64,000 nucleotides of DNA, taken from sequence record PP400782; one strand, written 5' to 3'. Below the pieces are notes generated by a model that was not told the origin of the DNA, did not search any database, and saw only the letters and a program-made list of their open reading frames with translations. Shown piece after piece: positions 12,720-59,570 of the stretch. The first letter of the stretch is position 1, and the number at the start of each line of letters is the position of its first letter. The DNA is from Escherichia phage FL31. The position numbers and the translations under genes were made by a program.

Positions 12720-12751
12720 TGGGAGACTTCGGTCTCCCATTTTTGGTTTTA
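12720..12751 (+). terminator. intrinsic terminator after gene 23
   Basis: UGGGAGAC-UUCG-GUCUCCCA hairpin followed by UUUUUGGUUUUA. Confidence 0.75.
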
Positions 12752-20703: not shown

Positions 20704-21102
20704 TTACACTCTATTGCTTGACGCTAACTGAAGTTTAATTTGTTCAATATCGTCAGGGTTGTCTACGACCGAAAATCTAATCTCTACTATAACCGTATAG
20801 TCATCATATACTGGCGTTACACTTACAGAAAGTTTGTCGATGCGTGGCTCATAGTTACGAACAGCTGCCTGGATATTACGCTCAATCGTATCGGCTGTAA
20901 GTGGTGTCATGTTCTCGAAAAGTTCATCAACCAAATCGCATCCAAATTCAGGGTCGAAGGGGCGTGAGCCTTTTCTAGTTGTCACTATGCCAAGAAGACT
21001 ATTTTTAATAGAACGAAGTCCTACAGAACGAGCAACGTCCTTGTTCCAATCCATACGCATTTCTGGGTCGATATCTGAATAAAGTTTATTGATATTAGAC
21101 AT
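20704..21102 (-). CDS. 25: baseplate wedge protein gp25
   Basis: 132 aa, the same as T4 gp25; downstream of gene 26 on the same strand. Confidence 0.9.
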   Translation of the reverse strand: MSNINKLYSDIDPEMRMDWNKDVARSVGLRSIKNSLLGIVTTRKGSRPFDPEFGCDLVDELFENMTPLTADTIERNIQAAVRNYEPRIDKLSVSVTPVYDDYTVIVEIRFSVVDNPDDIEQIKLQLASSNRV

Positions 21103-33782: not shown

Positions 33783-33993
33783 CTTTAACACTTATAATTT
33801 CAACATCAGCCCAATGACCGTATCCAGGTATACGGTCTTCGATAGATAAATTTCTGTCATTTTTAGGCATTTTAATTGACGTAACGTATGGTTCTAAACG
33901 GTTTTCCGCGTAATATGGAAAAACGTCGGTTACACGATAAGTAACTTCAATCATTTCCGTACCAAACAATTTCTGCATCAGTTTCTTAAACAT
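33775..33993 (-). CDS. hypothetical protein (72 aa)
   Basis: ATG start; tandem early-gene array. Confidence 0.45.
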   Translation of the reverse strand: MFKKLMQKLFGTEMIEVTYRVTDVFPYYAENRLEPYVTSIKMPKNDRNLSIEDRIPGYGHWADVEIISVKDV

Positions 33994-33994
33994 A

Positions 33995-34189
33995 TTATCC
34001 TCGCTTTAAACATTTGATTACAGACAGTTCTTGGCTCATGCGGACGTCTTCAGTTCCATCAACCCACAGGACTGCATAGGCTTCTTTAATTAAATTACCG
34101 TTAATTTTAAAAGCAGGTAAAACCTTTGAAATCATTCCGGGGATACCTATACCTTTTAACTGGACAGTTTGTGATAAGAATAGTTGCAT
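33995..34189 (-). CDS. hypothetical protein (64 aa)
   Basis: ATG overlaps the upstream stop as TAATG. Confidence 0.45.
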   Translation of the reverse strand: MQLFLSQTVQLKGIGIPGMISKVLPAFKINGNLIKEAYAVLWVDGTEDVRMSQELSVIKCLKRG

Positions 34190-34476
34190 TAGAACCTCAT
34201 CTGAAATCCGTGTGATTTAACATTACCGCCATAGATGTCAGAGGTATTGACTTCACGAGCGTCGCTAGGGTCGATGTTAATATCATGGTTGAGCTTAGTG
34301 ATTGCTAGGGTGTCACGACCATTGACTGTACGGAATTCTACTGGACAAACCACATCAGCATAAGCCTTAATGGATTCACGGGTGGGCTGTTTGTCGGCAG
34401 GAACATCTTTACCTGCTTTAGAGAAAACAACTTCACAGAAATTTTTACGAGTATCGAAATAAGTGGTCATAAACAT
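34189..34476 (-). CDS. hypothetical protein (95 aa from internal ATG)
   Basis: The track ATG at 34507-34509 is buried in the stem of a C(UUCG)G hairpin; codon 12 ATG at 34474-34476 has a GAGGAAA SD 5 nt upstream. Confidence 0.45.
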   Translation of the reverse strand: MFMTTYFDTRKNFCEVVFSKAGKDVPADKQPTRESIKAYADVVCPVEFRTVNGRDTLAITKLNHDINIDPSDAREVNTSDIYGGNVKSHGFQMRF

Positions 34477-34489
34477 AATATTTTCCTCA

Positions 34490-34509
34490 ATGGAGGCCGA
34501 AGCCTCCAT
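34490..34509 (-). other. C(UUCG)G hairpin between early ORFs
   Basis: Minus-strand AUGGAGGC-UUCG-GCCUCCAU, whose 5' arm contains the AUG used by the ORF track. Confidence 0.5.
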
Positions 34510-34517
34510 TTTTAAGA

Positions 34518-34883
34518 TTAGATATCGAATTCATTCAGAACTACATCAAAGATTGCTTCCAGGTGTTCAGGTTTAGCTCGGTTGCTCAGGATGTGACGAA
34601 TCCAAGTTTTAACCAGAAGCTTACGATTAACACCGTTCCAGCAAGGATGAGTACCTAAATCACGTTGACGGAAATCGTCATCTAATGCAATTTTGAAGTT
34701 GGAACCTTCCATCGTGATTGAAACCGTGATGCCATTTTCAAATCGCATATAAACGTAGTTAGGAGTCATGCACTGTTCGATTTCACAAACTGTACCATTT
34801 TCGTGTTTCCATAAGCAAATAACTTCAGAAGAACCAGCGATACCGTTAGAAACATATTTACGTTCGAAGTTGATGTAGTTCAT
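34518..34883 (-). CDS. hypothetical protein (121 aa)
   Basis: ATG start; early promoter at 34925-34953 just upstream. Confidence 0.5.
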   Translation of the reverse strand: MNYINFERKYVSNGIAGSSEVICLWKHENGTVCEIEQCMTPNYVYMRFENGITVSITMEGSNFKIALDDDFRQRDLGTHPCWNGVNRKLLVKTWIRHILSNRAKPEHLEAIFDVVLNEFDI

Positions 34884-34924
34884 TTTATTCTCCAGATGTT
34901 TAAGTTATTTGTTGGTACAGGACT

Positions 34925-34953
34925 ATAATAACATAACCTGTACCAAAGTAAAC
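34925..34953 (-). promoter_or_regulatory. early promoter
   Basis: Minus strand GTTTAC, 17-nt spacer, TATTAT-AGTC; upstream of the ORF starting at 34883. Confidence 0.55.
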
Positions 34954-34957
34954 ATTT

Positions 34958-35329
34958 TTATTTGATTTTTGTCCACTTAGCTGAATCAATAACACCTTTT
35001 GCTTTAATCTTCTCAATTAATGACTCTGCGCGATTTCTGGCATTTTCGTACCATACAACATCTTCAGAGTAACCAGTTTCTTCATCTTCGTAAGTTTTAG
35101 AACGAATACAGCCATAAACTGTAGAATTCAGACGGTAAATTTCACCAGTGAAAAAGTTTTCGATTTCGATATGATAACAAAAATCGTCTGAAGGGCCGTC
35201 AGGAGTTGTACAATAAACCACATCACCTTGAACTGAACGAACCATCCACTGTAACTCGTTAACAACTTGAGATTTATATCCATCATGGTCACGGCATTTA
35301 ATTGTAGCATTTAAATTGATAGTGTTCAT
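34958..35329 (-). CDS. hypothetical protein (123 aa)
   Basis: ATG start with GGAG SD; early promoter at 35371-35399 upstream. Confidence 0.5.
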   Translation of the reverse strand: MNTINLNATIKCRDHDGYKSQVVNELQWMVRSVQGDVVYCTTPDGPSDDFCYHIEIENFFTGEIYRLNSTVYGCIRSKTYEDEETGYSEDVVWYENARNRAESLIEKIKAKGVIDSAKWTKIK

Positions 35330-35370
35330 TTTATTCTCCGGTTGTTTTATTGATTAGGTGGTACAAGTCT

Positions 35371-35399
35371 ATAGTAACACATCCTACAGGAGAGTAAAC
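35371..35399 (-). promoter_or_regulatory. early promoter
   Basis: Minus strand GTTTAC, 17-nt spacer, TGTGT-TACTAT-AGAC; upstream of the ORF starting at 35329; directly 3' of a C(UUCG)G terminator. Confidence 0.6.
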
Positions 35400-35435
35400 A
35401 TCTTTTTAAACTTTTTCTGCCCTAAACGCACAAAA

Positions 35436-35453
35436 GGGAGACCGAAGTCTCCC
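35436..35453 (-). terminator. terminator after the 59-aa basic protein gene
   Basis: Minus-strand GGGAGAC-UUCG-GUCUCCC followed by UUUUGUGCGUUU; 23-nt identity with the gene 32 terminator. Confidence 0.7.
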
Positions 35454-35458
35454 TAAAA

Positions 35459-35638
35459 TTATGCAACAACCTTTCCAAAACGAGAAGCATCATCTCGAAG
35501 AACTGCACGTGCTCTGCGCATGATCTTCTCAACTGTTTGATTAATACGAGAGTTCGACCCACGCTTGTATCCAGCGCGTTTAGAGGTACCATCAACTTTC
35601 TTTTCAACTGCTTTCTTTGCTTTAGCTTGTTTTGCCAT
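35459..35638 (-). CDS. small highly basic protein (59 aa), absent from the ORF track
   Basis: Hand-translated ATG to TAA, 60 codons: MAKQAKAKKAVEKKVDGTSKRAGYKRGSNSRINQTVEKIMRRARAVLRDDASRFGKVVA; followed on the minus strand by a C(UUCG)G terminator. Confidence 0.45.
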   Translation of the reverse strand: MAKQAKAKKAVEKKVDGTSKRAGYKRGSNSRINQTVEKIMRRARAVLRDDASRFGKVVA

Positions 35639-35902
35639 TATAAATTCTCTTTAAATGAAAATGCAGGACTTATTGACATTGCCTGCGCAAGCCCTCAAGG
35701 GGAACATAGGTTTTGGATATTTAACGACAGGATAACCATAAACCTCGTCATCATACCAACCACGTCTTAGACAGATAACCTTTTTCTGACGCGTGATAGT
35801 ACAAAATACATTCAAGAGGTACACCGTAAAACTGCCGGGGACTTAAAACTATAATGATTCGCAAATCATTAATCAGACAGTTCGACGGCTCCTCGATTTA
35901 AC

Positions 35903-36151
35903 TTACTTTAGGGTAATAACAAAATGACGAACTGCTTTACGTGCGGCAGAAGCCAAAGGCTTAGCATATTTCAGTTCATCTTTTGCTTCCAGTTCAGAGG
36001 CCAAAGCTGCCTGGACCGGGTTCAGATGTTTGAAATATCGCAGGATTTCAAGAGCTTCGGCTTCAACATCGATAGATGCGCCATAGTTTTCGTGACCATT
36101 ATTCCATGCGTTACGTTGCAGTTCAAGAGCGTGTTGTAATTGTTTAATCAT
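35903..36151 (-). CDS. rIII: rIII lysis-inhibition accessory protein
   Basis: 82 aa, the same as T4 rIII; MIKQLQHALELQRNAWNNGHENYGASIDVEAEALEILRYFKHLNP... matches recalled T4 rIII. Confidence 0.8.
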   Translation of the reverse strand: MIKQLQHALELQRNAWNNGHENYGASIDVEAEALEILRYFKHLNPVQAALASELEAKDELKYAKPLASAARKAVRHFVITLK

Positions 36152-36963: not shown

Positions 36964-37545
36964 TTATTCACCACAAAAGTTTCGGATTTGTTCCCAATTC
37001 AGAGAACGAAGATTATTACGAGAGTACTGAATTACTTCAATACCAGCTTGTTTAAGAATGTCTGCCCAATTTTCAGGAGACCGGTCATATAATTCTGCAT
37101 ATACAACCTTTTTAATGCCTGACTGTGTGATAGCTTTAGTGCAATCAGGACATGGAGAAAGTGTCGTATACAACGTAGCACCTTCAATAGAATTACCTTT
37201 GCGAGCTGCAAATAAAATTGCATTCAGTTCCGCATGGATTTCGTTATTAGCAGACCATGCACTATGAGCGGCCCGATGTTCTTTAGCCAAAACAAAATTA
37301 TCTGCCCGTCCAAATGCTGTAGTGCCTTCTTTATGACCAACAACGATGACCGGGCTTGGTTTATTCTTCAACCAGCCGTTTTCGGATGCATGTTCGCAAC
37401 AGTTAACGCCACCTGAAGGAGAGCCATTATAACCTGTAGAAATAATGCGTCCATCTTTTTCAATGACTGCGCCAACTTTCCATGAACAACATTTTGATTC
37501 TTGAGAAATCAGATATGCAATCTGAAGGTATGTGCTAGCTTTCAT
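36964..37545 (-). CDS. cd: dCMP deaminase
   Basis: 193 aa; zinc-binding HAELNAI and PCPDC motifs; near-identical to recalled T4 Cd. Confidence 0.95.
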   Translation of the reverse strand: MKASTYLQIAYLISQESKCCSWKVGAVIEKDGRIISTGYNGSPSGGVNCCEHASENGWLKNKPSPVIVVGHKEGTTAFGRADNFVLAKEHRAAHSAWSANNEIHAELNAILFAARKGNSIEGATLYTTLSPCPDCTKAITQSGIKKVVYAELYDRSPENWADILKQAGIEVIQYSRNNLRSLNWEQIRNFCGE

Positions 37546-38537
37546 TATTGAACCTTATTAATATAAGTTAACAGCTCTTTAGTTTGTTCCCAACTGATGC
37601 ACGCATCGGTAACGGAAACGCCATAGGACATATTATCAGAAATTTTTTGATTTCCTTCATGTAGGAATGATTCTATCATAATTCCTTTGACCAAATCATT
37701 AGCTGCTAAATTTTTACCAATACCAATTTGATTGCTATAATGCCCAGCAGCGTTTGCATGGCTACAGTCAACCATTACATAATGATTCAGACCTACTGCC
37801 CTTGCTTTGTTAGAAGCTTCTTGAATATCAGAAGAATGATAGTTCGGACCGTTGGTCCCACCACGCAATACGATATGCGTATTCTGATTACCTTCAGCTT
37901 CAACAATGCCTACAGTACCATCGACGTCCATACCCATATACCGATGAGGCCAGGCGGCACTATACATCGCGTCTGTAGCTACTTTAATAGAACCATTGGT
38001 TGCGTTCTTGAAGCCTACGCACATCGGTAGACCTGAAGCAATTTCACGATGTGTCTGGCTTTCAGTAGTACGGGCGCCAATAGCAACCCATGAGAAAATA
38101 CCAGAAAGATACTTAATCGTGAATGGGTCTAATACTTCAGTTGCTAATGGAAGTCCCATACGTAGAAGTTTACGACACAATGTTCGTGCAACTATAAGAC
38201 CGTGGTTCATATCAAAACTTCCGTCAAGATATGGATCATTTACAAGACCTTTCCAACCTACGGTAGTTCGAGGCTTTTCAAAATAAACGCGCATCACTAA
38301 CAGAACATTAGGAAGACGAGTTTGAAGTTCAGCCAGACGTTTGCCGTATTCAACAGCAGCAATAGGGTCATGAATTGAACAAGGACCTACAACAATAAGT
38401 TTGCGTGGGTCTTCACCGTTCATAATCGAATTAACTTGTTCGCGATGAGAAGCCACTTGTGATGCGTAAGCTTCCGACAAAGGAATAATCTCAGCCAGTT
38501 CTTTTGGAGAAATAAGTTTTCCGACGACAGGTAACAT
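37545..38537 (-). CDS. 3-deoxy-D-arabino-heptulosonate-7-phosphate (DAHP) synthase, class I (AroF/AroG/AroH family)
   Basis: 330 aa; conserved blocks GPCSIHD, MRVYFEKPRTTVGWKGL, AIGARTTESQTHRE, CVGFKN, VLRGG, VDCSHAN, ESFLHEGNQ, YGVSVTDACISWE align by eye with E. coli AroG and AroF over the full length; AAGGA SD; stop overlaps the cd ATG as TAATG. Confidence 0.9.
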   Translation of the reverse strand: MLPVVGKLISPKELAEIIPLSEAYASQVASHREQVNSIMNGEDPRKLIVVGPCSIHDPIAAVEYGKRLAELQTRLPNVLLVMRVYFEKPRTTVGWKGLVNDPYLDGSFDMNHGLIVARTLCRKLLRMGLPLATEVLDPFTIKYLSGIFSWVAIGARTTESQTHREIASGLPMCVGFKNATNGSIKVATDAMYSAAWPHRYMGMDVDGTVGIVEAEGNQNTHIVLRGGTNGPNYHSSDIQEASNKARAVGLNHYVMVDCSHANAAGHYSNQIGIGKNLAANDLVKGIMIESFLHEGNQKISDNMSYGVSVTDACISWEQTKELLTYINKVQ

Positions 38538-38657
38538 AACAATCCTTAGGAGATATAAACAGATTCTGATTCAACAATACCTTTAACCGGATTAGACAGG
38601 CTAAGTTGGTAGTGCTCAGATTTATGACCATTCTCGATAGTAATGAGATAGCTCTCA

Positions 38658-38920: not shown

Positions 38921-38950
38921 ATCATATCACAACTCTACGGTGTTGTAAAC
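38921..38950 (-). promoter_or_regulatory. early promoter for the cd.x-DAHP synthase-cd transcription unit
   Basis: Minus strand GTTTAC, 18-nt spacer, TGTGA-TATGAT-GACTC; upstream of the ORF starting at 38894; no promoter found closer to the DAHP synthase gene. Confidence 0.55.
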
Positions 38951-39226
38951 TTAAATTGCAAAACATTTAATTTCTTGTGAATCGAAATCAACTTCGCACT
39001 GAATTACTAGTTCAGCATCAAGTCCAAACACAACAATCACATGAGCCGAGCTGGGCAACAGTGTAACGGACACAGAATCCACTTGGTCAGGCACCAGCGT
39101 ATTCAAAACGTAGAGTAGTTCAGAGTGGATCTTAAGCTCTGTAGCCGTGTCCAGCTTATCAAAGAAATGATTTGCGATAATCTGACTAAAAACGACCTTT
39201 ACAATTTCAGAATATTTAGGGAACAT
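38951..39226 (-). CDS. hypothetical protein (91 aa; cd.x region)
   Basis: ATG start; tandem small early ORF. Confidence 0.45.
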   Translation of the reverse strand: MFPKYSEIVKVVFSQIIANHFFDKLDTATELKIHSELLYVLNTLVPDQVDSVSVTLLPSSAHVIVVFGLDAELVIQCEVDFDSQEIKCFAI

Positions 39227-44098: not shown

Positions 44099-44601
44099 TT
44101 AGAAATATTTTTTGTATGAATTGATTACATTTTGGTCTACATCATTATCAATTTGTGCGACAAGATAAGAACTGATTTCAACTTCCTGAGGAGCTGCTTG
44201 AACTAAATCAGAGTTCAGATATTCACGAATCCAAGGATACGGATGCTTGGTCGGAGCATCAGTAATTGGACATGGCAAACCACACTGTTTCATACGAGAC
44301 ACAGTCAAGTAATCAACAAAAGCACACATACTCTGCGTATTGATACCTGGACATGTACCATCTTTAAAGAGGTGTGCAGCCCATTCCTTCTCTTGACTAT
44401 TTACTTCCATAAAAATGTCAACTGCTTCTTGTTCACATTCTTTAGCAATTTGAACCCACTCATCACCGTCAGTACCAGATTGAAGTTGACGGATAATGTA
44501 CTGAGTACCCTTGAGATGGAGTTGTTCGTCACGAGCAATGAACTTCATAATCTTTGCATTACCTTCCATAATTTCCATGTTCTTATGGAAGTTAAAGGTA
44601 C
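44099..44601 (-). CDS. nrdB: ribonucleotide reductase small subunit NrdB, exon 2
   Basis: Encodes ...MEGNAKIMKFIARDEQLHL... (diiron ligands E..H) through the C-terminus. The 5' boundary is inferred so that the splice restores conserved FAC-TFNF and gives 393 codons in frame. Confidence 0.75.
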
Positions 44602-44737
44602 CGTTATGTTCGATTGAGCTCGCTAATTCTCAACCCGTTCTCTTATGAACTGCTACATATTACTATGCAGACCAGACTATATCACAATCCCAGAGGGATT
44701 CTCCCCATTTCGAGTCGCTTGACCCTACGTCCGAAGA

Positions 44738-45547
44738 CTAGTCGTTGAACCTTGCTTTGCAATTGTCGCCGTGCCATCGTTTATATGTTGATGGTGATAA
44801 ATCTTTCTTATCACAATATGGACAATTCAATTGAATTCTATTTGGATTTAATTTACATCTATCATTATGTTTTAGATAAAATCCAGGACCTTTACCAATG
44901 TGACCGCAGAAATCACATGTGATTTCTTTTTGTGCAGGATGGGTTCCGTTCTTAACCATTTCTAATGTTTTTGCTGATGTTCTTTTCTTATGGTCTTCTG
45001 ACAAGAAATGATGTGAACCGTCATTTACCCGTTTTGATTGAGTTTCTGACTGCATTTTACCACCGCAAAATACATGAGTACCTTCTTTTATAGCTGCAAT
45101 ATTGCGTTCTTTAACTTTTGCAATATGCTCAGCTTGTTGAAAATTATGTATACCTAATGCAACTCTATTTAAATTAGATTTACGCTGTATTTCACCGTCT
45201 AAAAGATGAAATGTACCATTTTCTATCTTAGATTTAATAGAGGCAATATTTTTAGCTCGTACTTCAGGGATATTAAAAATCTGGATTTCTCTAGATTTTG
45301 CGGCTTTAGAAGCTAATTCAGAAATTTCTTCAGGAGAATATTTCATTCTAAGCTTTATAGCGTGACAAGCCTGGTAATCTTTTTGAGCTAAATGTATATC
45401 ATAATGTTCCTGTATAGAAAGGCACATCAAATTATCTAAATCATTATTTTCACGGTTACCGTCTTTATGATGGATTTCGTATGTTCTTCCATCAGAATCT
45501 TTAGGTATAGGTCCGTTAGCATCTATCCAAATTTTTCTATAGTTCAA
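44738..45547 (-). CDS. intron-encoded HNH homing endonuclease (I-TevIII-like), intact
   Basis: 269 aa; HNH motif EIHHKDGNRENNDLDNLMCLSIQEHYDIH; C-terminal Cys clusters (CDFCGH...CPYC...C) suggesting zinc fingers; apparent TTG start with AAGAGGA SD; TATAAATA 28 nt upstream. Confidence 0.75.
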   Translation of the reverse strand: MNYRKIWIDANGPIPKDSDGRTYEIHHKDGNRENNDLDNLMCLSIQEHYDIHLAQKDYQACHAIKLRMKYSPEEISELASKAAKSREIQIFNIPEVRAKNIASIKSKIENGTFHLLDGEIQRKSNLNRVALGIHNFQQAEHIAKVKERNIAAIKEGTHVFCGGKMQSETQSKRVNDGSHHFLSEDHKKRTSAKTLEMVKNGTHPAQKEITCDFCGHIGKGPGFYLKHNDRCKLNPNRIQLNCPYCDKKDLSPSTYKRWHGDNCKARFND

Positions 45548-45574
45548 TTGTGCATCCTCTTAAAAGTATAATCA

Positions 45575-45582
45575 TATTTATA
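45575..45582 (-). promoter_or_regulatory. late promoter inside the nrdB intron driving the homing endonuclease ORF
   Basis: Minus-strand TATAAATA 28 nt upstream of the endonuclease start. Confidence 0.55.
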
Positions 45583-45692
45583 TTATACTAATTAAAGGTG
45601 CAAGCAAAACCTTGGCTGCTAGTTTTCCTATAAAGGACTTTCCAGCAATTAAAGGAGTTTTCGATAAACGTTACCGTTTAAAGGCGCATTTT

Positions 45693-46368
45693 ACGCAAAA
45701 GATACATAAAAACGAATAGCTTCTAAGGCATTAATAACGTGTAAACAGAGGTAAAGAGATTTCATTAAAGCACGTTTAGCTTCGGCTTCTTGTTTAATAG
45801 CTCGGTTTAAACGAAAATCAGCATCAGGAGATTCTTTAGCTAGTTCTACAAATTCTTTAGCATTTTCCCAATAACGAGTTTTAACCAGAACATCATCGTA
45901 ATATTTACCTATTGATTCAGCTCGTTTCATGATTGCTTCGTCTAATACAATCTCATCAAATACCTTAGATGGATCGGTATAAAGATTTCGCATAATATGA
46001 GTGTACGAACGAGAGTGAATAGTTTCACTGAATGTCCATGTTGCAACCCACGTATCTAATGAAGGGTCGGAAATCAGTGCCATAAGTACCGCAGATGGGG
46101 CCCTGCCTTGGATAGAATCTAATAATGATTGATACTTAAGATTGTTTGTAAAGATGTCCTGTTGGAACTGAGGAAGCTTATTGAACTGCGCAGAGTCCAA
46201 CATCAAGTTTACCTCTTCTGGGCGCCAGAAAAACGACAATTGCTTTTCAATAAGTTCTTCAAAAACTTTATGTCGCTGAATATCATAACGTGCGAGGCCA
46301 AGACCAGAACCAAAGAACATTGGTTCATTCAAAACATCGACTTGTTGTGTGTTAAAAACTGTACTCAT
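45693..46368 (-). CDS. nrdB: ribonucleotide reductase small subunit NrdB, exon 1
   Basis: Starts MSTVFNTQQVDVLNEP... at the first ATG (the track start 46380 is GTG); R2 fold motifs; ends at the inferred 5' splice site. Confidence 0.75.
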
Positions 46369-49020: not shown

Positions 49021-50716
<1,696 letters not shown>

Positions 50717-50778
50717 TTTATTCTCCTTCACTTTTGATTTGATAGGGCTACTATAACATAACCCTATCTGATTATACA

Positions 50779-51171
50779 CTACTTTTTAAAAGTTTTTTGC
50801 AAAAGTTTGATGATTTCGTCGACGTTGGTTTCATCTACGATACAATGGATTTTTGTTACACCTAAAGTTATACCTTCGTTAGTAGGTTGAGGCTTTACTA
50901 AATCTACCTCAGTAAAGTATTTGAACTCGTCATGATAAATCTCAAAATAAGTTTCAATTTCACCACCGGCAGAACATACCGTACCGTCTTCCATAGTTAC
51001 ACTTACTACGTTTGACGTATCGCTATCATAATCAGGTTCCATTCCGTTTACAACAAAACTAGGCCCGTGGAGTTCAATCAATTTTAACATCTTAGCGTTA
51101 TTGTGTGGTGCTTCTTGAACAAAGTCGTCTTTAAATAAAGGGTTAATGATATAAGATTTTCCGATTTTCAT
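50779..51171 (-). CDS. hypothetical protein (130 aa; frd.2 position)
   Basis: ATG start; early promoter at 51201-51229 upstream. Confidence 0.5.
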   Translation of the reverse strand: MKIGKSYIINPLFKDDFVQEAPHNNAKMLKLIELHGPSFVVNGMEPDYDSDTSNVVSVTMEDGTVCSAGGEIETYFEIYHDEFKYFTEVDLVKPQPTNEGITLGVTKIHCIVDETNVDEIIKLLQKTFKK

Positions 51172-51200
51172 TTTGATTTCCTCATGTTGTTGATAGGTCT

Positions 51201-51229
51201 ATACTAACACATCCAGGTAAGAAGTAAAC
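51201..51229 (-). promoter_or_regulatory. early promoter for the frd.2-frd.1-frd-td unit
   Basis: Minus strand GTTTAC, 17-nt spacer, TGTGT-TAGTAT-AGAC; directly 3' of the gene 32 C(UUCG)G terminator. Confidence 0.6.
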
Positions 51230-51260
51230 AACTTTTTCGGCAATTTACAGATACTCAAAA

Positions 51261-51278
51261 GGGAGACCGAAGTCTCCC
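51261..51278 (-). terminator. terminator after gene 32
   Basis: Minus-strand GGGAGAC-UUCG-GUCUCCC followed by UUUUGAG. Confidence 0.7.
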
Positions 51279-51284
51279 AATTTA

Positions 51285-52184
51285 TTATAGACCAGCTAAC
51301 AGGTCATCGAGGTCGCCATCGTCAGAAGACGAGGAACTCATGAAGTCATCTTCAGTTTTTGCAGAACCAAAGGCTTCCATGTCTTTATCAAAATCGTCAA
51401 GGTCAGAAGCAACTTTATCTGCAACAGAAGCTGCTGCGGCTGCTGCACCACCAAGAGCGGCAGTACCAAGAACTTGATTAAATTTAGTATTCAATTCTTC
51501 AAACGATTTGAACTTATCTTTAGAAGTCATTTCAGAAAGGTCAACCATTTGTTCGAACAATTCTTTCTGGAAAGATTCATCATCAATGTTTGGAATCGCA
51601 GATTGATTCAGGAATTTAGATTCGTCGTAGTTACTGAAACCAGAAACCTGTTTAACTTTCAGCACAAAGTTAGCACCTTCCCATGGGCAAGTTACATCAA
51701 CAGGAGTTTCACCCATTTCAGTATCGACTGCAATCATTGCATTGATTTTGTCCCAAATCTTTTTACCGAAACGATATTTGAATACTTTACCTTCATTATC
51801 TGGAGCTTGAGGGTCTTTAACAACCAGAATATTAGCCCAATAAGAAGTTTTACGTTTCAGTTGAGAATATTCAGTTTTGTTGGTATTGTACAGGTCATTT
51901 TTACTAATGTACTGACATACAGGACAAGAGTCATAATCGCCGTGTGTAGATGAACAGGTTTCAATATACCATTTACCATTTTTCTTGAACCCGTGGTTAA
52001 CAAGAATTGTAAACGGAAGTGCGTCATCTGTTTTTGCCGGCAGGAAACGAATTACCGCTTGACCATTACCGGATGCATCGAGTTTCAGCTTCCATTCACC
52101 TTTATCTTCTGAAGAGAAACCTTTGTTACCATTCAGTTTAGCCATCTGAGCTGCGAGGTCTGCGGTACTTTTACGTTTAAACAT
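51285..52184 (-). CDS. 32: single-stranded DNA-binding protein gp32
   Basis: 299 aa; zinc-binding H...C...CPVC block ([14 protein letters not shown]); acidic C-terminal tail; near-identical to recalled T4 gp32. Confidence 0.95.
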
Positions 52185-54495: not shown

Positions 54496-54525
54496 ATAGT
54501 AACATACTAGTTCGAAAGCGTAAAT
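54496..54525 (-). promoter_or_regulatory. early promoter for rnh
   Basis: Minus strand ATTTAC, 18-nt spacer, TATGT-TACTAT-AGTC; divergent from the gene 34 late promoter. Confidence 0.5.
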
Positions 54526-54540
54526 AGTCTTTTACTCATT

Positions 54541-54548
54541 TATAAATA
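54541..54548 (+). promoter_or_regulatory. late promoter for gene 34
   Basis: Exact TATAAATA 35 nt upstream of the gene 34 ATG. Confidence 0.7.
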
Positions 54549-54582
54549 GTAAAATAGAACACATAATGATAAGAGGACTACC

Positions 54583-57500
54583 ATGGTTGACATCAAACGT
54601 AAGTTCAGGGCCGAAGATGGTCTTGACGCAGGCGGTGATAAGATAGTTAACGTTGCGCTTGCTGACCGCACAGTTGGCACCGATGGCGTGAACGTTGACT
54701 TTTTGGTGCAAGAAAACACCGTACAGAATTATGACGATACGCGCGCGTATACAAAAGATTTTATTGTTCTTTATGATAATCGTTTTTATCAAGCTTTAAG
54801 CGATATTCCAGCTCCGGCAGGCCCTTTCTCTTTGGGTAAATGGAAGGCAACTCGTACAGATGCAGATTGGATTACAGTTCAAGGCGGAGATTTCCAATTA
54901 TCAGTAGGTAACTCTATTGCGGTTGATACTTCAGCTGGCACTGATATTAATTTCACTTTGCCTCAAAATCCTTTAGATGGCGATACAGTTATTTTGTCTG
55001 ATATTGGCGGTAGAGTAGGCTATGTAAAAGTTCAAATTACTGCAGCGGCTCAAAGTATTGTAAACTTTAGAGGACAACAGGTTCGTTCAGTTTTAATGAC
55101 GCACCCAAAATCTAAAATGGTCTTCATTTTTAGCAACCGCCTATGGCAAATGTATATTTCTGATTATGAACGTAATGCAGTCACAGTAACTCCTGCTAAG
55201 CCGTATCAGGCGCAACCTAACGATTTTATCATTCGTCGTTTTACATCAGCCGCTCCTATTAATATTACATTGCCTCGCAATGCTAATAATGGCGATATTA
55301 TTAATTTAGTTGATTTAGACAAATTAAACCCGTTATATCACACAATTGTCAAAACTTACGATGATACAACTTCTATACGAGAAGCTGGTGTTCATGTAGC
55401 AGAAGGACGTAATACTGCGGAAGCGTTCTTTGTTTATGATTCTGCTAATAGCTTATGGCGTGTTTGGGAAGGTGACCAGAAATCTCGTTTACGTATAGTT
55501 CGTAATGATACTGATTTACGCCCTAATGAAGAAGTTCTTGTGTTTGGAACTAATAATGATACAATCTCGACGGTAAATCTTACTTTGCCTACAGATATTT
55601 TGTCTGGCGATACTGTTAAAATATCGTTGAATTATATGCGTAAAGGGCAAACTGTAAAAATTAAAGCTGCTGAAGGCGATACAATTGCTACCAGTATTTC
55701 TTTATTACAGTTCCCAAAACGTTCAGAGTATCCACCTGATGCACAATGGGTTTCTGTTAGTGAGCTGGAATTTAATGGCGATACTTCGTATGTACCTGTA
55801 CTTGAGTTAGCTTATATAGAAGATTATTCATCTGAAACAAAATATTGGGTAGTTCAACAAAACACTGTAACCGTCGAACGAGTCGATGCATCGAGCAATA
55901 CAACTCGAGCTCGTTTAGGTGTTATTGCTCTTGCTTCTCAAGAGCAAGCAAATGTTGATTTAGAAAATGCTCCTGGTAAAGAACTGGCTATTACTCCGGA
56001 AACATTAGCAAATCGTACAGCAACTGAAACTCGTCGTGGTATTGCTCGTATTGCAACAACTGCACAAGTTAACCAGAATACCGATTTTGCATTCCAGGAT
56101 GATTTGATTATTTCTCCTAAGAAATTGAACGAACGTACAGCAACTGAAACCCGTAGAGGTGTTGCTGAAGTTGCAACTCAGGCTGAAACTAATGCTGGCA
56201 CAGATGATACCACTATTATTACTCCTAAGAAATTGGATGCCCGTCAAGGTTCTGAAGTTTTATCCGGTATTGTAAAATACACATCTACGACTGGTACTAC
56301 AGCTGCTACTATTCGTGGTAATGCTGGGACTAACGTTTATAACAAATCCGTAGATAATTTAACTATTTCTCCAAAGGCTCTTGACCAGTATAAAGCTACC
56401 CCTACTCAACAGGGCTCAGTAATTCTTGCTATTGAAAGCGAAGTTATCGCTGGCGAATCACAAGCTGGTTGGGCTAATGCTGTAGTGACCCCTGAAACTC
56501 TGCATAAGAAAACTTCTACTGATGGACGTATTGGTTTAATTGAAATTGCTACGCAAGCAGAAACTAACACTGGAACTGATTATACTAGAGCAGTAACGCC
56601 TAAGACGTTAAATGATAGGAAAGCTACGGAAGGATTATCTGGTATAGCCGAAATTGCTACGCAAGTTGAATTTGATACTGGAACTGATGATACTCGTATC
56701 TCAACTCCACTGAAAATTAAAACTCATTTTGATTCTTCTGACCGTACCAGTGTTAATTCTGATTCCGGACTTATTGAAGAAGGAACCTTGTGGAACCATT
56801 ATACTCTTGATATTTCTAAAGCAAATGAAACACAACGTGGTACACTTCGTGTAGCGACCCAAGCTGAATCTAATGCAGGAACTTTAGATGACGTTCTTAT
56901 TACTCCTAAAAAGCTTTTAGGGACTAAGTCCACTGAAACATCTGAAGGTGTAATTAAGGTTGCTACTCAAGATGAAACTGTAACGGGAACTTCCACTAAT
57001 ACTGCTGTATCACCTAAGAATTTAAAATGGATTGTTCAATCAGAACCATCATGGACTGCTACTACAGCAATTCGTGGATTCGTTAAAACTTCGTCTGGTT
57101 CTATTACATTCGTTGGTAATGATACAGTTGGTTCAACACAACCTTTAGAATCATATGAAAAAAATAGCTATGCTATATCTCCATATGAATTAAACCGTGT
57201 ACTTGCTAACTATTTGCCATTAAAAGCAAAAGCAGCTGATAGTAATTTGTTAGATGGTCTAGATTCTCTTCAGTTCATCCGTAGAGACATCGACCAGACG
57301 GTTAATGGTTCTTTAAGTCTTACTAAACAGACCAACCTGAGTGCCCCTTTGGTATCTACAAGCACCGCTTCTTTTGGTTCCGAAGCATCTGTTACTCGTA
57401 GATTAACTCTTAATGACTCTAGCGGTTCCGAAATAGTTTTCACTAAAGGAACCCAATCTCTTAGTAATAAAGAGAATTTCGTTGTTAGAGTATGGGGTAA

Positions 57501-58424: not shown

Positions 58425-59549
58425 ATGGAAAAATTTATGGCAAGGTTTGGACATGGATACGTCCAAACGCCGTTTTTATCGGAAAGCAATTCAGTTAGAT
58501 TTAAGCTAAGTATAGCGGGTTCATGCCCGCTTTCAACAACTAATCCGTATATTTTGTTCCAAAACGAGCCTTTAGGGTTGCAGTCTTTTGGTATTGGACT
58601 AAATGTTAGGGTGATAAATCCTGAAAATGGAACTATAGTTGATAGTAAATTATACAATTTTGCGCCTACAAATAATGCAACTTCGGCAGCGTTTATTTCG
58701 TTTGTTAATACATACGCGGATAATTTCATTTTCGCATTTATTTCTAATAACAAATTTAATTTGCCACCAGAAATAATTGAATGGTTTAAAGCTGCTGGGA
58801 GTTCAGTTATACCGTCAATTGAAGTTGCTAGTCTTGTTGATATTTCATATTCAGCGTTTTATGTTTCAGGTAAAAATACTATTGCATTAGAACACATAAA
58901 ATACAGTAATAAGAAAACAATTTCTGATTACGCAACTCCATTAGATATTGTATATGACTCTATTGCTGATATAGGTGCTACCGGCTATCCTAGACGCACA
59001 TATGAAGCTCTAGAAACGTTTTTATCTCCTGTTGGAGGAACTAACAATGAAATAAAAAGGATGCCTACATCATCCCTTGTTACTCCTATCGCAAACTATG
59101 GATTAAAGCCTACAGATTTTCTTTATTTGAAATTTCAATTAATGGCTGATGAAGAATTATTAGAGGAAGGAACCACAAGACTTTCAATTCGTTTCTTTAA
59201 GTCTCCATCTAGCTCTCCTATATCATCTAAAGATATAAACTTTGATGGAACTGCTGGTGAATGGAAGTTATACGAAGAATATGTTGAAATACCAGCCGAA
59301 GCTGATGGCTTTACGGTATATTGTTACCGTACGGCCCCAGTCGGTCAAGGTGGACTAAGAAATGTTATTTTCACTGAAGTATCATGTAACGGAAGTATAG
59401 CAAAACCTGCCGAGTTTGGTATAAACGGTATTCGTGTTAATTACATTGATGAATCATTAACCGGTAATGATATAATGGACTTGCCTACTCAGTTATCTAA
59501 CGACACAGGTAAGGTATTTGGGCAGGAATTTAAAGAGTACACAGAATAA
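58425..59549 (+). CDS. 35: long tail fiber hinge (knee) protein gp35
   Basis: 374 aa (T4 372 aa); position 34-35-36. Confidence 0.85.
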   Translation: MEKFMARFGHGYVQTPFLSESNSVRFKLSIAGSCPLSTTNPYILFQNEPLGLQSFGIGLNVRVINPENGTIVDSKLYNFAPTNNATSAAFISFVNTYADNFIFAFISNNKFNLPPEIIEWFKAAGSSVIPSIEVASLVDISYSAFYVSGKNTIALEHIKYSNKKTISDYATPLDIVYDSIADIGATGYPRRTYEALETFLSPVGGTNNEIKRMPTSSLVTPIANYGLKPTDFLYLKFQLMADEELLEEGTTRLSIRFFKSPSSSPISSKDINFDGTAGEWKLYEEYVEIPAEADGFTVYCYRTAPVGQGGLRNVIFTEVSCNGSIAKPAEFGINGIRVNYIDESLTGNDIMDLPTQLSNDTGKVFGQEFKEYTE

Positions 59550-59570
59550 AGGAGACTTCGGTCTCCTTTT
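59549..59570 (+). terminator. terminator after gene 35
   Basis: AAGGAGAC-UUCG-GUCUCCUU then UU; overlaps the gp35 stop codon. Confidence 0.65.

Follow-up and report, generated by a model that had tools for sequence, protein, structure and literature searches.

The stretch of DNA analysed here, hereafter the window, comprises 64,000 nucleotides of Escherichia phage FL31 (sequence record PP400782) and is a region of an RB69-like T4-type phage of the genus Mosigvirus. We are concerned with two intergenic junctions, A and B, around which all of the genes lie on the minus strand and where the same strand carries the sequence GGGAGAC-UUCG-GUCUCCC followed by UUUU, at 35453-35432 (A) and at 51278-51257 (B). 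At locus A the stop codon of the 59-aa gp30.9 homologue (35461-35459) is followed, 5 nt further on, by the hairpin GGGAGACTTCGGTCTCCC (35453-35436, GGGAGAC-UUCG-GUCUCCC) and by its U-tract, UUUU and then G (35435-35432), which is short, and termination here may therefore be partial. Next come an A-rich, UP-element-like stretch, GCAGAAAAAGTTTAAAAAGAT (35420-35400), and the early promoter P30.8, whose -35 element GTTTAC (35399-35394) and -10 element TACTAT (35376-35371), both found by pattern matching, are separated by 17 nt, the last three of them TGT (35393-35377), with transcription predicted to start near 35364. The SD sequence GGAG (35339-35336) and the ATG (35329-35327), which together mark the 3' end of the conserved cassette, belong to gene 30.8 (34958-35329, minus strand, 123 aa), which was assigned on the basis of Pfam (PF06019, Phage_30_8, E 1.3e-74) and the RB69 annotation. 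The initial annotation had placed this cassette between a 59-aa gene and a 30.7-like gene; the former is gp30.9, but the gene that follows is 30.8, the module lying between cassette A and the 30.7 promoter. Gene 30.7 (34518-34883) has an early promoter of its own at 34953, GTTTAC..TATTAT (34925-34953, minus strand), without a hairpin.

Locus B has the same order of elements. The stop codons of gene 32 (51287-51282) are followed after 3 nt by the hairpin GGGAGAC-UUCG-GUCUCCC (51278-51261) and its U-tract TTTT (51260-51257), and then by the frd.2 early promoter, made up of the A-tract GCCGAAAAAGTT (51241-51230), a -35 element GTTTAC (51229-51224) located by pattern matching, a 17-nt spacer with TGT (51223-51207) and a -10 element TAGTAT (51206-51201), from which transcription is predicted to start near 51194. 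The SD sequence GAGG (51183-51180) and the ATG (51171-51169) lead into an frd.2-like gene of 130 aa (50779-51171, minus strand; Pfam FRD2, PF03197, E 2.6e-35), confirming the original placement of cassette B between gene 32 and the frd.2-frd-td unit. Between hairpin and -35 element there are 36 nt in cassette A and 31 nt in cassette B, which corrects the figure of about 35 nt first given for hairpin to promoter.

In order to gauge chance occurrence we compared the counts of both elements with those in shuffled sequence. The promoter pattern matches three times in the window and in none of 100 shuffles, and the hairpin 18-mer, with three mismatches or fewer allowed, matches four times and again in none of 100 shuffles; neither is a product of chance, and the arrangement claimed at the outset, a minus-strand hairpin and then an early promoter at both loci, is borne out. 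A strict scan for a hairpin together with a promoter returns cassettes A and B only in the window, and five or six cassettes in RB69. Scans with generic consensus sequences, whose counts taken alone are uninformative, gave promoters and terminators at numbers not above shuffles in one region and promoters modestly above shuffles in the other (79 vs 57.7, sd 7.3), and an Rfam scan of the whole window at the gathering threshold returned no family match.

The hairpin has the features of an intrinsic terminator, namely a stem of 7-8 bp with five G-C pairs, a UUCG loop and a UUUU tract, albeit a short one. Folded with its flanks, hairpin A reaches -19.2 kcal/mol (z -5.3) and hairpin B -13.6 kcal/mol (z -3.4), and every copy of the hairpin is stable, with values between -12.7 and -19.2 kcal/mol and z between -3.4 and -5.3. 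A search for the cassette elsewhere in the window turned up the hairpin at three more sites, with no early promoter after any of them: a third exact copy follows gene 23 on the plus strand (12721-12738, -14.8 kcal/mol), a variant, AAAGGAGAC-UUCG-GUCUCCUUU, lies on the plus strand between genes 35 and 36 (59548-59569) and is followed by the late promoter TATAAATA, and the same stem with another loop, AAAGGGAGAC-AAC-GUCUCCCUUU, is found on the minus strand at the gene 54/alt.-3 junction (28053-28031). RB69 has a matching set, together with copies at the 8/9 junction and ahead of the early promoter at 20957. The full GGGAGAC/GUCUCCC stem is found in RB69 and the window at 8/9, after gene 23, at 54/alt.-3, at 30.9/30.8 and after gene 32, and a shortened stem, GGAGAC/GUCUCC, at 35/36 and upstream of the RB69 promoter at 20957. 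A comparable C(UUCG)G hairpin, at 34510-34489, shares bases with a start codon and is not at the end of a unit. The exact 18-mer is present in at least 120 stretches of highly diverse viral contigs in IMG/VR; among the matches listed, a T-rich tail follows in 107 of 122 occurrences and an early promoter in a single one of the 122, which is the locus A orthologue. Because of this wide distribution, mostly with a T-rich tail and almost never with an early promoter among those matches, we conclude that GGGAGAC-UUCG-GUCUCCC is a generic terminator sequence, used again and again.

The promoters of both cassettes belong to a class with a long shared consensus, aaaaA..gTTTACat...TaTGtTAttATag.CcTAtcaA, that begins at the A-tract and continues into the start of the transcript. 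Searching by pattern we find 9 minus-strand members in the window and, with a strict pattern, about 33 in RB69, and in five or six of the latter a hairpin lies no more than about 90 nt upstream; Nolan et al. (2006, PMC1524935) list 57 early promoters for RB69 and describe them by GTTTAC and an A-rich region at -40 to -44. Early promoters of T4 are described as consisting of UP, -35, TGn and -10 elements plus extra consensus positions (Hinton 2010, PMC2988021). The A-rich UP-like tract, GTTTAC, TGn, TAnnnT and the extra conserved positions are common to the T4 'uber' promoters (PMC2988021) and to A and B, and the RB69-type promoters, unlike the T4 ones, add a conserved initial transcribed sequence, AGnCCTATCAA.

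This long consensus bears directly on the initial proposal that A and B are near-identical copies of one duplicated cassette. Their pairwise alignment consists of three good blocks with poorly aligned, indel-containing sequence between them, and near-identity thus holds within the blocks and is lost outside them. Block 1, the hairpin with its U-tract, is identical at 23/23 positions, block 2, AAAAAG.TGTTTACT around the -35 element, at 14/15 and block 3, the extended -10 region GGATGTGTTA.TATAGAC, at 17/18. Blocks 2 and 3 are consensus features of the early promoters of this phage, and the spacer between hairpin and -35 element differs in length as well as in sequence. When promoter pairs are compared after anchoring on the -10 element, A and B share 27/44 identities in the core and 40/80 in a longer frame, to be set against means of 27.0 and 40.6 for pairs with the same spacer, with the best of the other early-promoter pairs reaching up to 40/44. 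The nearest relative of promoter A is the 30.7 promoter at 34953 (54/80), with which it forms a 111-nt repeat of 73% identity. Similarity of the whole unit above the level of the class, as in a segmental duplicate, was not found: the sole exceptional identity between A and B is the 23-nt hairpin and U-tract, beyond which the two are as similar as any pair of early promoters, which is in essence the outcome that the initial proposal had named as its refutation. Duplication of the whole cassette was rejected on the basis of the pairwise alignment and the comparison with all early-promoter pairs. The resemblance of A and B exists because early promoters share a long consensus and because the genome reuses one favoured hairpin, and the case for common descent of the hairpin itself is weakened by the presence of the exact 18-mer in so many diverse viral stretches.

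Comparison with relatives points in the same direction. Identity to RB69 over locus A (34800-36000) is 98%, locus B (50600-51800) matches members of the mar005p1 group, AV116 and G2469 among them, at 98-99%, and over 30000-54999 the best records are about 96-97% identical. In T4 the hairpin AGGACUCC-UUCG-GGAGUCCU and a GTTTAC..TAGTAT promoter lie between 30.9 and 30.8, and the hairpin GGGGACC-CUAGA-GGUCCCC with a GTTTAC promoter follows gene 32. A hairpin, mostly with a UUCG loop, is found downstream of gene 32 in 28/29 T-even-like contigs and a GTTTAC-type promoter match in 25/29, and at least eight different genes come first past the gene 32 promoter among these 29 loci. Upstream of 30.8 the relatives that keep 30.9 have both hairpin and promoter, and where the upstream gene differs there is a promoter only. 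Since T4 carries a terminator and an early promoter at both of the orthologous junctions, neither junction was copied from the other, and both are older than the split between T4 and RB69.

The same elements had been predicted independently in RB69, where the supplementary files of Nolan et al. (2006, PMC1524935) contain early promoters Pe:132117, orthologous to that of A, and Pe:146013, at the position of B, as well as TransTerm terminators '30.8<--30.9' (132140-132157) and 'RB69ORF245c<--32' (146032-146049), each with a confidence of 100. In the same paper terminators are predicted after gene 23 and at 35/36 in 6/6 T4-like genomes, and after gene 32 in 5/6. These predictions concern sequence that is 98% identical in the A region and, at B, nearly identical through the end of gene 32, hairpin, spacer and -35 element; the window differs at B by having another -35/-10 spacer and no RB69ORF245c. 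Nolan et al. (PMC1524935) give the elements separately and do not treat them as paired cassettes. The orthologues of both hairpins are annotated as terminators in G2469. A literature search for maps of transcription starts or termination in T4 or RB69 found none. With hairpins that fold, full early promoters and independently predicted RB69 orthologues, the view that these are punctuation modules of early transcription units holds up well.

A further suggestion had been that near-identity makes the cassettes candidate sites of exchange between related phages. Alignment of the window with G2469 shows about 100% identity across 30.9, all of cassette A and the ATG; divergence sets in right after the ATG so that the 30.8 ORF is about 65% identical over 35324-34962, and identity resumes just before the -35 element of the 30.7 promoter. 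The allele of 30.8 in the window is of the RB69 type. Because the genes around it differ from those of G2469 by only 0-3%, we read 30.8 as an allele replacement, with its ends inside the two conserved regulatory cassettes. At B, the window and RB69 are identical through gene 32, hairpin, spacer and GTTTACTT, and TATAGACyTATCAACA is common to both, but the window is without a block of about 243 nt that carries RB69ORF245c (75 aa). The ends of this indel fall within the -35/-10 spacer and within a repeated 5'UTR, ATCAACA.ATGAGGAAA, the flanks being marked by the repeated 5'UTR/SD motif ATCAACA.ATGAG(A)GGAAA. The gene frd.3, which in T4 is found directly after the gene 32 cassette, has its RB69 homologue in the e.6-e.8 region. 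Between the window and G2469 over 30000-54990, 4/17 edges of diverged blocks fall in early-promoter footprints where 0.62 would be expected (P ~0.006), an enrichment that comes from one genome comparison and small numbers and that conserved regulatory DNA beside fast-evolving ORFs would give equally well by any mechanism. The exchange suggestion is supported in the form of cassette-bounded swaps and indels among relatives, for which a model has been published (see below). Recombination between A and B themselves was considered as well, and was set aside by reasoning as a viable event, in that it would delete 15.8 kb containing gene 31, cd, pseT, rnlA, nrdAB, td and frd.

The published model is that of the PeSL (promoter-early stem-loop), in which a sigma-70-like early promoter is immediately preceded by a stem-loop terminator and accompanied by AT-rich sequence upstream and by the SD sequence and ATG of the following gene (Arbiol 2010, PMC2839356; Comeau 2014, PMC4122927). 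We consider it very probable that A and B are two separate, anciently placed PeSL-type junctions, each serving to stop and restart transcription, and that their likeness comes from the promoter class and the favoured hairpin. The anatomy of the sequence, the conserved position of the junctions, their likeness at the level of the promoter class and the mosaic bounded by the cassettes are observed; from these and from the T4 and RB69 predictions we infer the following course of events for termination, initiation and recombination at the two loci. An intrinsic terminator, with a 7-8 bp G+C stem, a very stable C(UUCG)G tetraloop and four U, would close the upstream transcript (rIII-30.9 in the case of A, gene 32 in that of B), and the hairpin probably also shields the 3' end of that transcript. 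Some 30-36 nt further on, a strong sigma-70 promoter of the T4 early class (A-rich UP-like tract, GTTTAC, 17-nt spacer, TGn and TAnTAT) would restart transcription and give immediate-early expression of 30.8 at A and of frd.2-frd.1-frd-td at B, a short 5'UTR with its SD sequence leading into the ATG. The favoured terminator hairpin is used at five or six junctions of the genome. The cassettes would insulate the modules downstream of them and be conserved among relatives while the ORFs diverge, and would therefore be natural sites for the resolution of homologous recombination, so that recombination between co-infecting relatives would tend to resolve within cassettes and produce allele swaps and single-ORF indels.

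Other explanations have been weighed against this one. A true duplication, in which a module of about 80 nt comprising terminator and promoter is copied or transposed between the loci as a mobile regulatory cassette, could draw on the identical 23-nt block, the 17/18 match in the extended -10 region and the 14/15 match around the -35 element, as well as on the mobile cassettes and mini-circles proposed in the PeSL literature. We nonetheless judge it very improbable, given that the similarity of the promoters is the class average, that the spacers between hairpin and -35 element are 36 and 31 nt long and unlike in sequence, that T4 has both junctions with other hairpins, and that the hairpin is found at other sites without an early promoter. 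Moreover, the -35/-10 spacer of the B promoter is of another kind in RB69 (AAACATGATAC type), and the likeness between A and B is therefore not constant even within the genus. A reading that we also find improbable, if less so, holds that the hairpins are mainly RNA-level elements, such as exonuclease barriers, RegB/RNase E-related signals or protein-binding sites, and are mostly read through by the polymerase. C(UUCG)G hairpins of T4 mRNAs were reportedly identified as stability elements by Tuerk and colleagues in 1988, a similar hairpin in the window covers a start codon as described above, and the U-tracts are only 4 nt long; with UUUUG tracts this short, termination may be weak or the hairpins may chiefly stabilise 3' ends. 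Against a mainly RNA-level role, the hairpins at A and B sit between a stop codon, 3-5 nt away, and a promoter, they are called terminators by TransTerm and in the annotation of G2469 alike, the T-rich tail accompanies 107 of the 122 listed occurrences of the 18-mer, and the stem-loops of RB49 PeSLs, when tested, terminated transcription (Arbiol 2010, PMC2839356).

Copying restricted to the terminator, in contrast with duplication of the whole cassette, would leave the promoters untouched and can supplement the reading of A and B as separate PeSL-type junctions but not displace it. T4 has a different stem at each of the five orthologous sites compared, whereas the GGGAGAC stem is found at all five in RB69 and the window. 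One hairpin at five or six junctions, against five stems in T4, goes beyond what function alone would give and hints that the hairpin has been copied from site to site. Concerted evolution in which some 23-30 nt of hairpin and U-tract are transferred by short-patch gene conversion or palindrome template switching is in our estimate a serious possibility, though not the one we would favour. It finds an echo in contig 2974496990, from another genus, whose loci A and B share one hairpin, UGGGAACC-YUAGU-GGUUCCCAUUUUUGUU (GGGAACC-YUAGU-GGUUCCC), with the same U-tract; this hairpin is present in only 4 IMG/VR stretches, all from one clade, and relatives of this contig keep the stem at B with a different loop. 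A recent conversion of B from A in this contig is accordingly supported only in part, since the relatives already share the B stem with another loop. There are also reasons for caution: the T4-like stems all fit GGGRRNC, a space small enough for matches to arise if selection favours a handful of optimal stems, GGGAGAC-UUCG-GUCUCCC is common in unrelated viruses, which argues for convergence, GGGAGAC is found after genes 32 and 23 in several genera, so that part of the sharing is old, and no conversion tract is visible past the hairpin. The more specific proposition that the Mosigvirus hairpin of about 23 nt is a small repeat, homogenised among five to seven unrelated junctions whether an early promoter, a late promoter or none follows, seems to us somewhat more doubtful still. 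If true, it would mean concerted evolution of the terminators of one genome, while the orthologous T4 terminators have drifted apart, and it would also explain the rare GGGAACC-YUAGU hairpin at both A and B of another genus.

For annotation purposes, the label terminator/early-promoter junction (PeSL type) suits both sites, A as a boundary of the 30.8 module and B as one of the frd.2-td unit. They contribute Mosigvirus examples, with breakpoints at the level of single bases, to the published model in which T4-type phages swap small early genes at such cassettes. The importance of the result beyond annotation is slight, and the uniformity of the hairpin within the genome is a minor point.

That A and B are PeSL-type junctions is supported by a comparison element by element, and the elements, together with the idea of exchange, are already known from the literature. 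The hairpin ends 36 nt (A) or 31 nt (B) before the -35 element, as expected for the stem-loop of a PeSL. With respect to the T4/PST promoter consensus TTTACW-N17-TAYWAT, A (GTTTACT-N17-TACTAT) fits fully and B (GTTTACT-N17-TAGTAT) fits save for one -10 position, where G replaces Y. Both have the AT-rich region before the -35 element (GCAGAAAAAGTTTAAAAAGAT at A, GCCGAAAAAGTT at B), and both end in an SD sequence and start codon (GGAG..ATG at 35339-35327 and GAGG..ATG at 51183-51169). Indels or replacements between close relatives are found nearby, in the form of the 30.8 swap, the RB69ORF245c indel, the placement of frd.3 and the enrichment of edges, and the counts from RB69 establish that there are several related copies per genome. 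In the two PeSL papers (PMC2839356, PMC4122927), PeSLs are described as clustering beside variable small, non-essential ORFs, modular shuffling is proposed and in part shown, and crossovers are mapped between the -10 element, the SD sequence and the ATG. PeSLs have been published for RB49/phi1, T4/PST and KVP40/nt-1 and not specifically for Mosigvirus. Their stems also differ: those of T4/PST are variable and of the form AGNA-loop-TCNT, and the A/B stem is GGGAGAC with a UUCG loop. Finally, A and B are recognised as PeSLs by their sequence, whereas those of RB49 are known through reporters and mini-circles.

Two other systems invite comparison. The C(UUCG)G hairpins of T4 mRNAs are said to have a UUCG loop closed by a C-G pair, a G+C stem and an intercistronic location, and in these respects the hairpins of A and B are ordinary examples. 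In bacteria, promoter-coupled terminators place a terminator close to the next promoter between tandem genes (Fletcher et al. 2026, bioRxiv 10.64898/2026.08.19.745784). There the sites of termination and initiation overlap, with sequence in common, whereas at A and B the two lie 31-36 nt apart and are separable.

Allele differences bounded by early promoters are also found elsewhere in the window. The block at 38960-39176, which shares ∼65% identity with RB69 and likewise with G2469, is a further difference of this kind, with the -35 element of the early promoter at 38950 starting 10 nt downstream of the end of the diverged block. Window positions 54509-54975 are 98-100% identical to RB69 and only ∼69% identical to G2469, and here the divergence from G2469 starts at the junction of rnh with gene 34, from a point within the early promoter (54525-54496). 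The small gene frd.3 is shifted from one early-promoter context to another between RB69 and T4, its homologue lying in the e.6-e.8 region of RB69 (L214, RB69 72055-72282) and directly 3' of the gene 32 cassette in T4 (L003, T4 146575-146802).

A 1.1-kb block (37549-38654) that is found in G2469 and missing from RB69 carries a DAHP synthase I family gene (37545-38537, minus strand, 330 aa; PF00793, E = 5.7e-75), a shikimate-pathway metabolic gene that adjoins the dCMP deaminase gene. Relative to RB69, nrdB is interrupted by an insertion at 44594-45856 that includes an HNH_3 endonuclease ORF (44738-45547, E = 6e-13) and has the appearance of an intron or of a homing-endonuclease element, with short diverged patches on either side (44234-44387 and 45768-45925).

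In other genera the gene 32 terminator is separated from the early promoter by inserted long perfect palindromes, which lie ∼40-110 nt past the gene 32 stop codon at loci L140, L145 and L224-L226 and occur also at L130-L133; one example reads GGCACATATAAGTTACATTA...TAATGTAACTTATATGTGCC and a second consists of repeated GTAACTTATACGTTAC. In the T4-like contig 2974787500 (L128) the gene 32 terminator is deleted and the gene 32 stop codon abuts the -35 element of the frd.3 promoter (TAAAACAGTTTAC...).

A C(UUCG)G hairpin, AAUGGAGGC-UUCG-GCCUCCAUU, is located 7 nt past the 30.7 stop codon (34489-34510, minus strand). The beginning of the next ORF downstream (34189-34509, 106 aa), with its AUG and first codons, falls within this hairpin, so that the start codon is in the stem. 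This ORF gave no Pfam match, and its region (33912-34517) diverges strongly from RB69 and G2469 alike.

Genes 30.7 and 30.8 resemble one another in their promoters, 5'UTRs, Shine-Dalgarno sequences and first codons (MNYIN... and MNTIN..., respectively), and these segments are more alike than are cassette A, the hairpin and early promoter between 30.9 and 30.8, and cassette B, its counterpart between gene 32 and frd.2. On the minus strand a direct repeat of 111 nt with 73% identity relates 34867-34977 to 35313-35423. The 30.7 and 30.8 copies are in tandem, 446 nt apart, which is the geometry proposed for the mini-circles of the promoter-early stem-loop (PeSL), the published composite element of T4-type phages.
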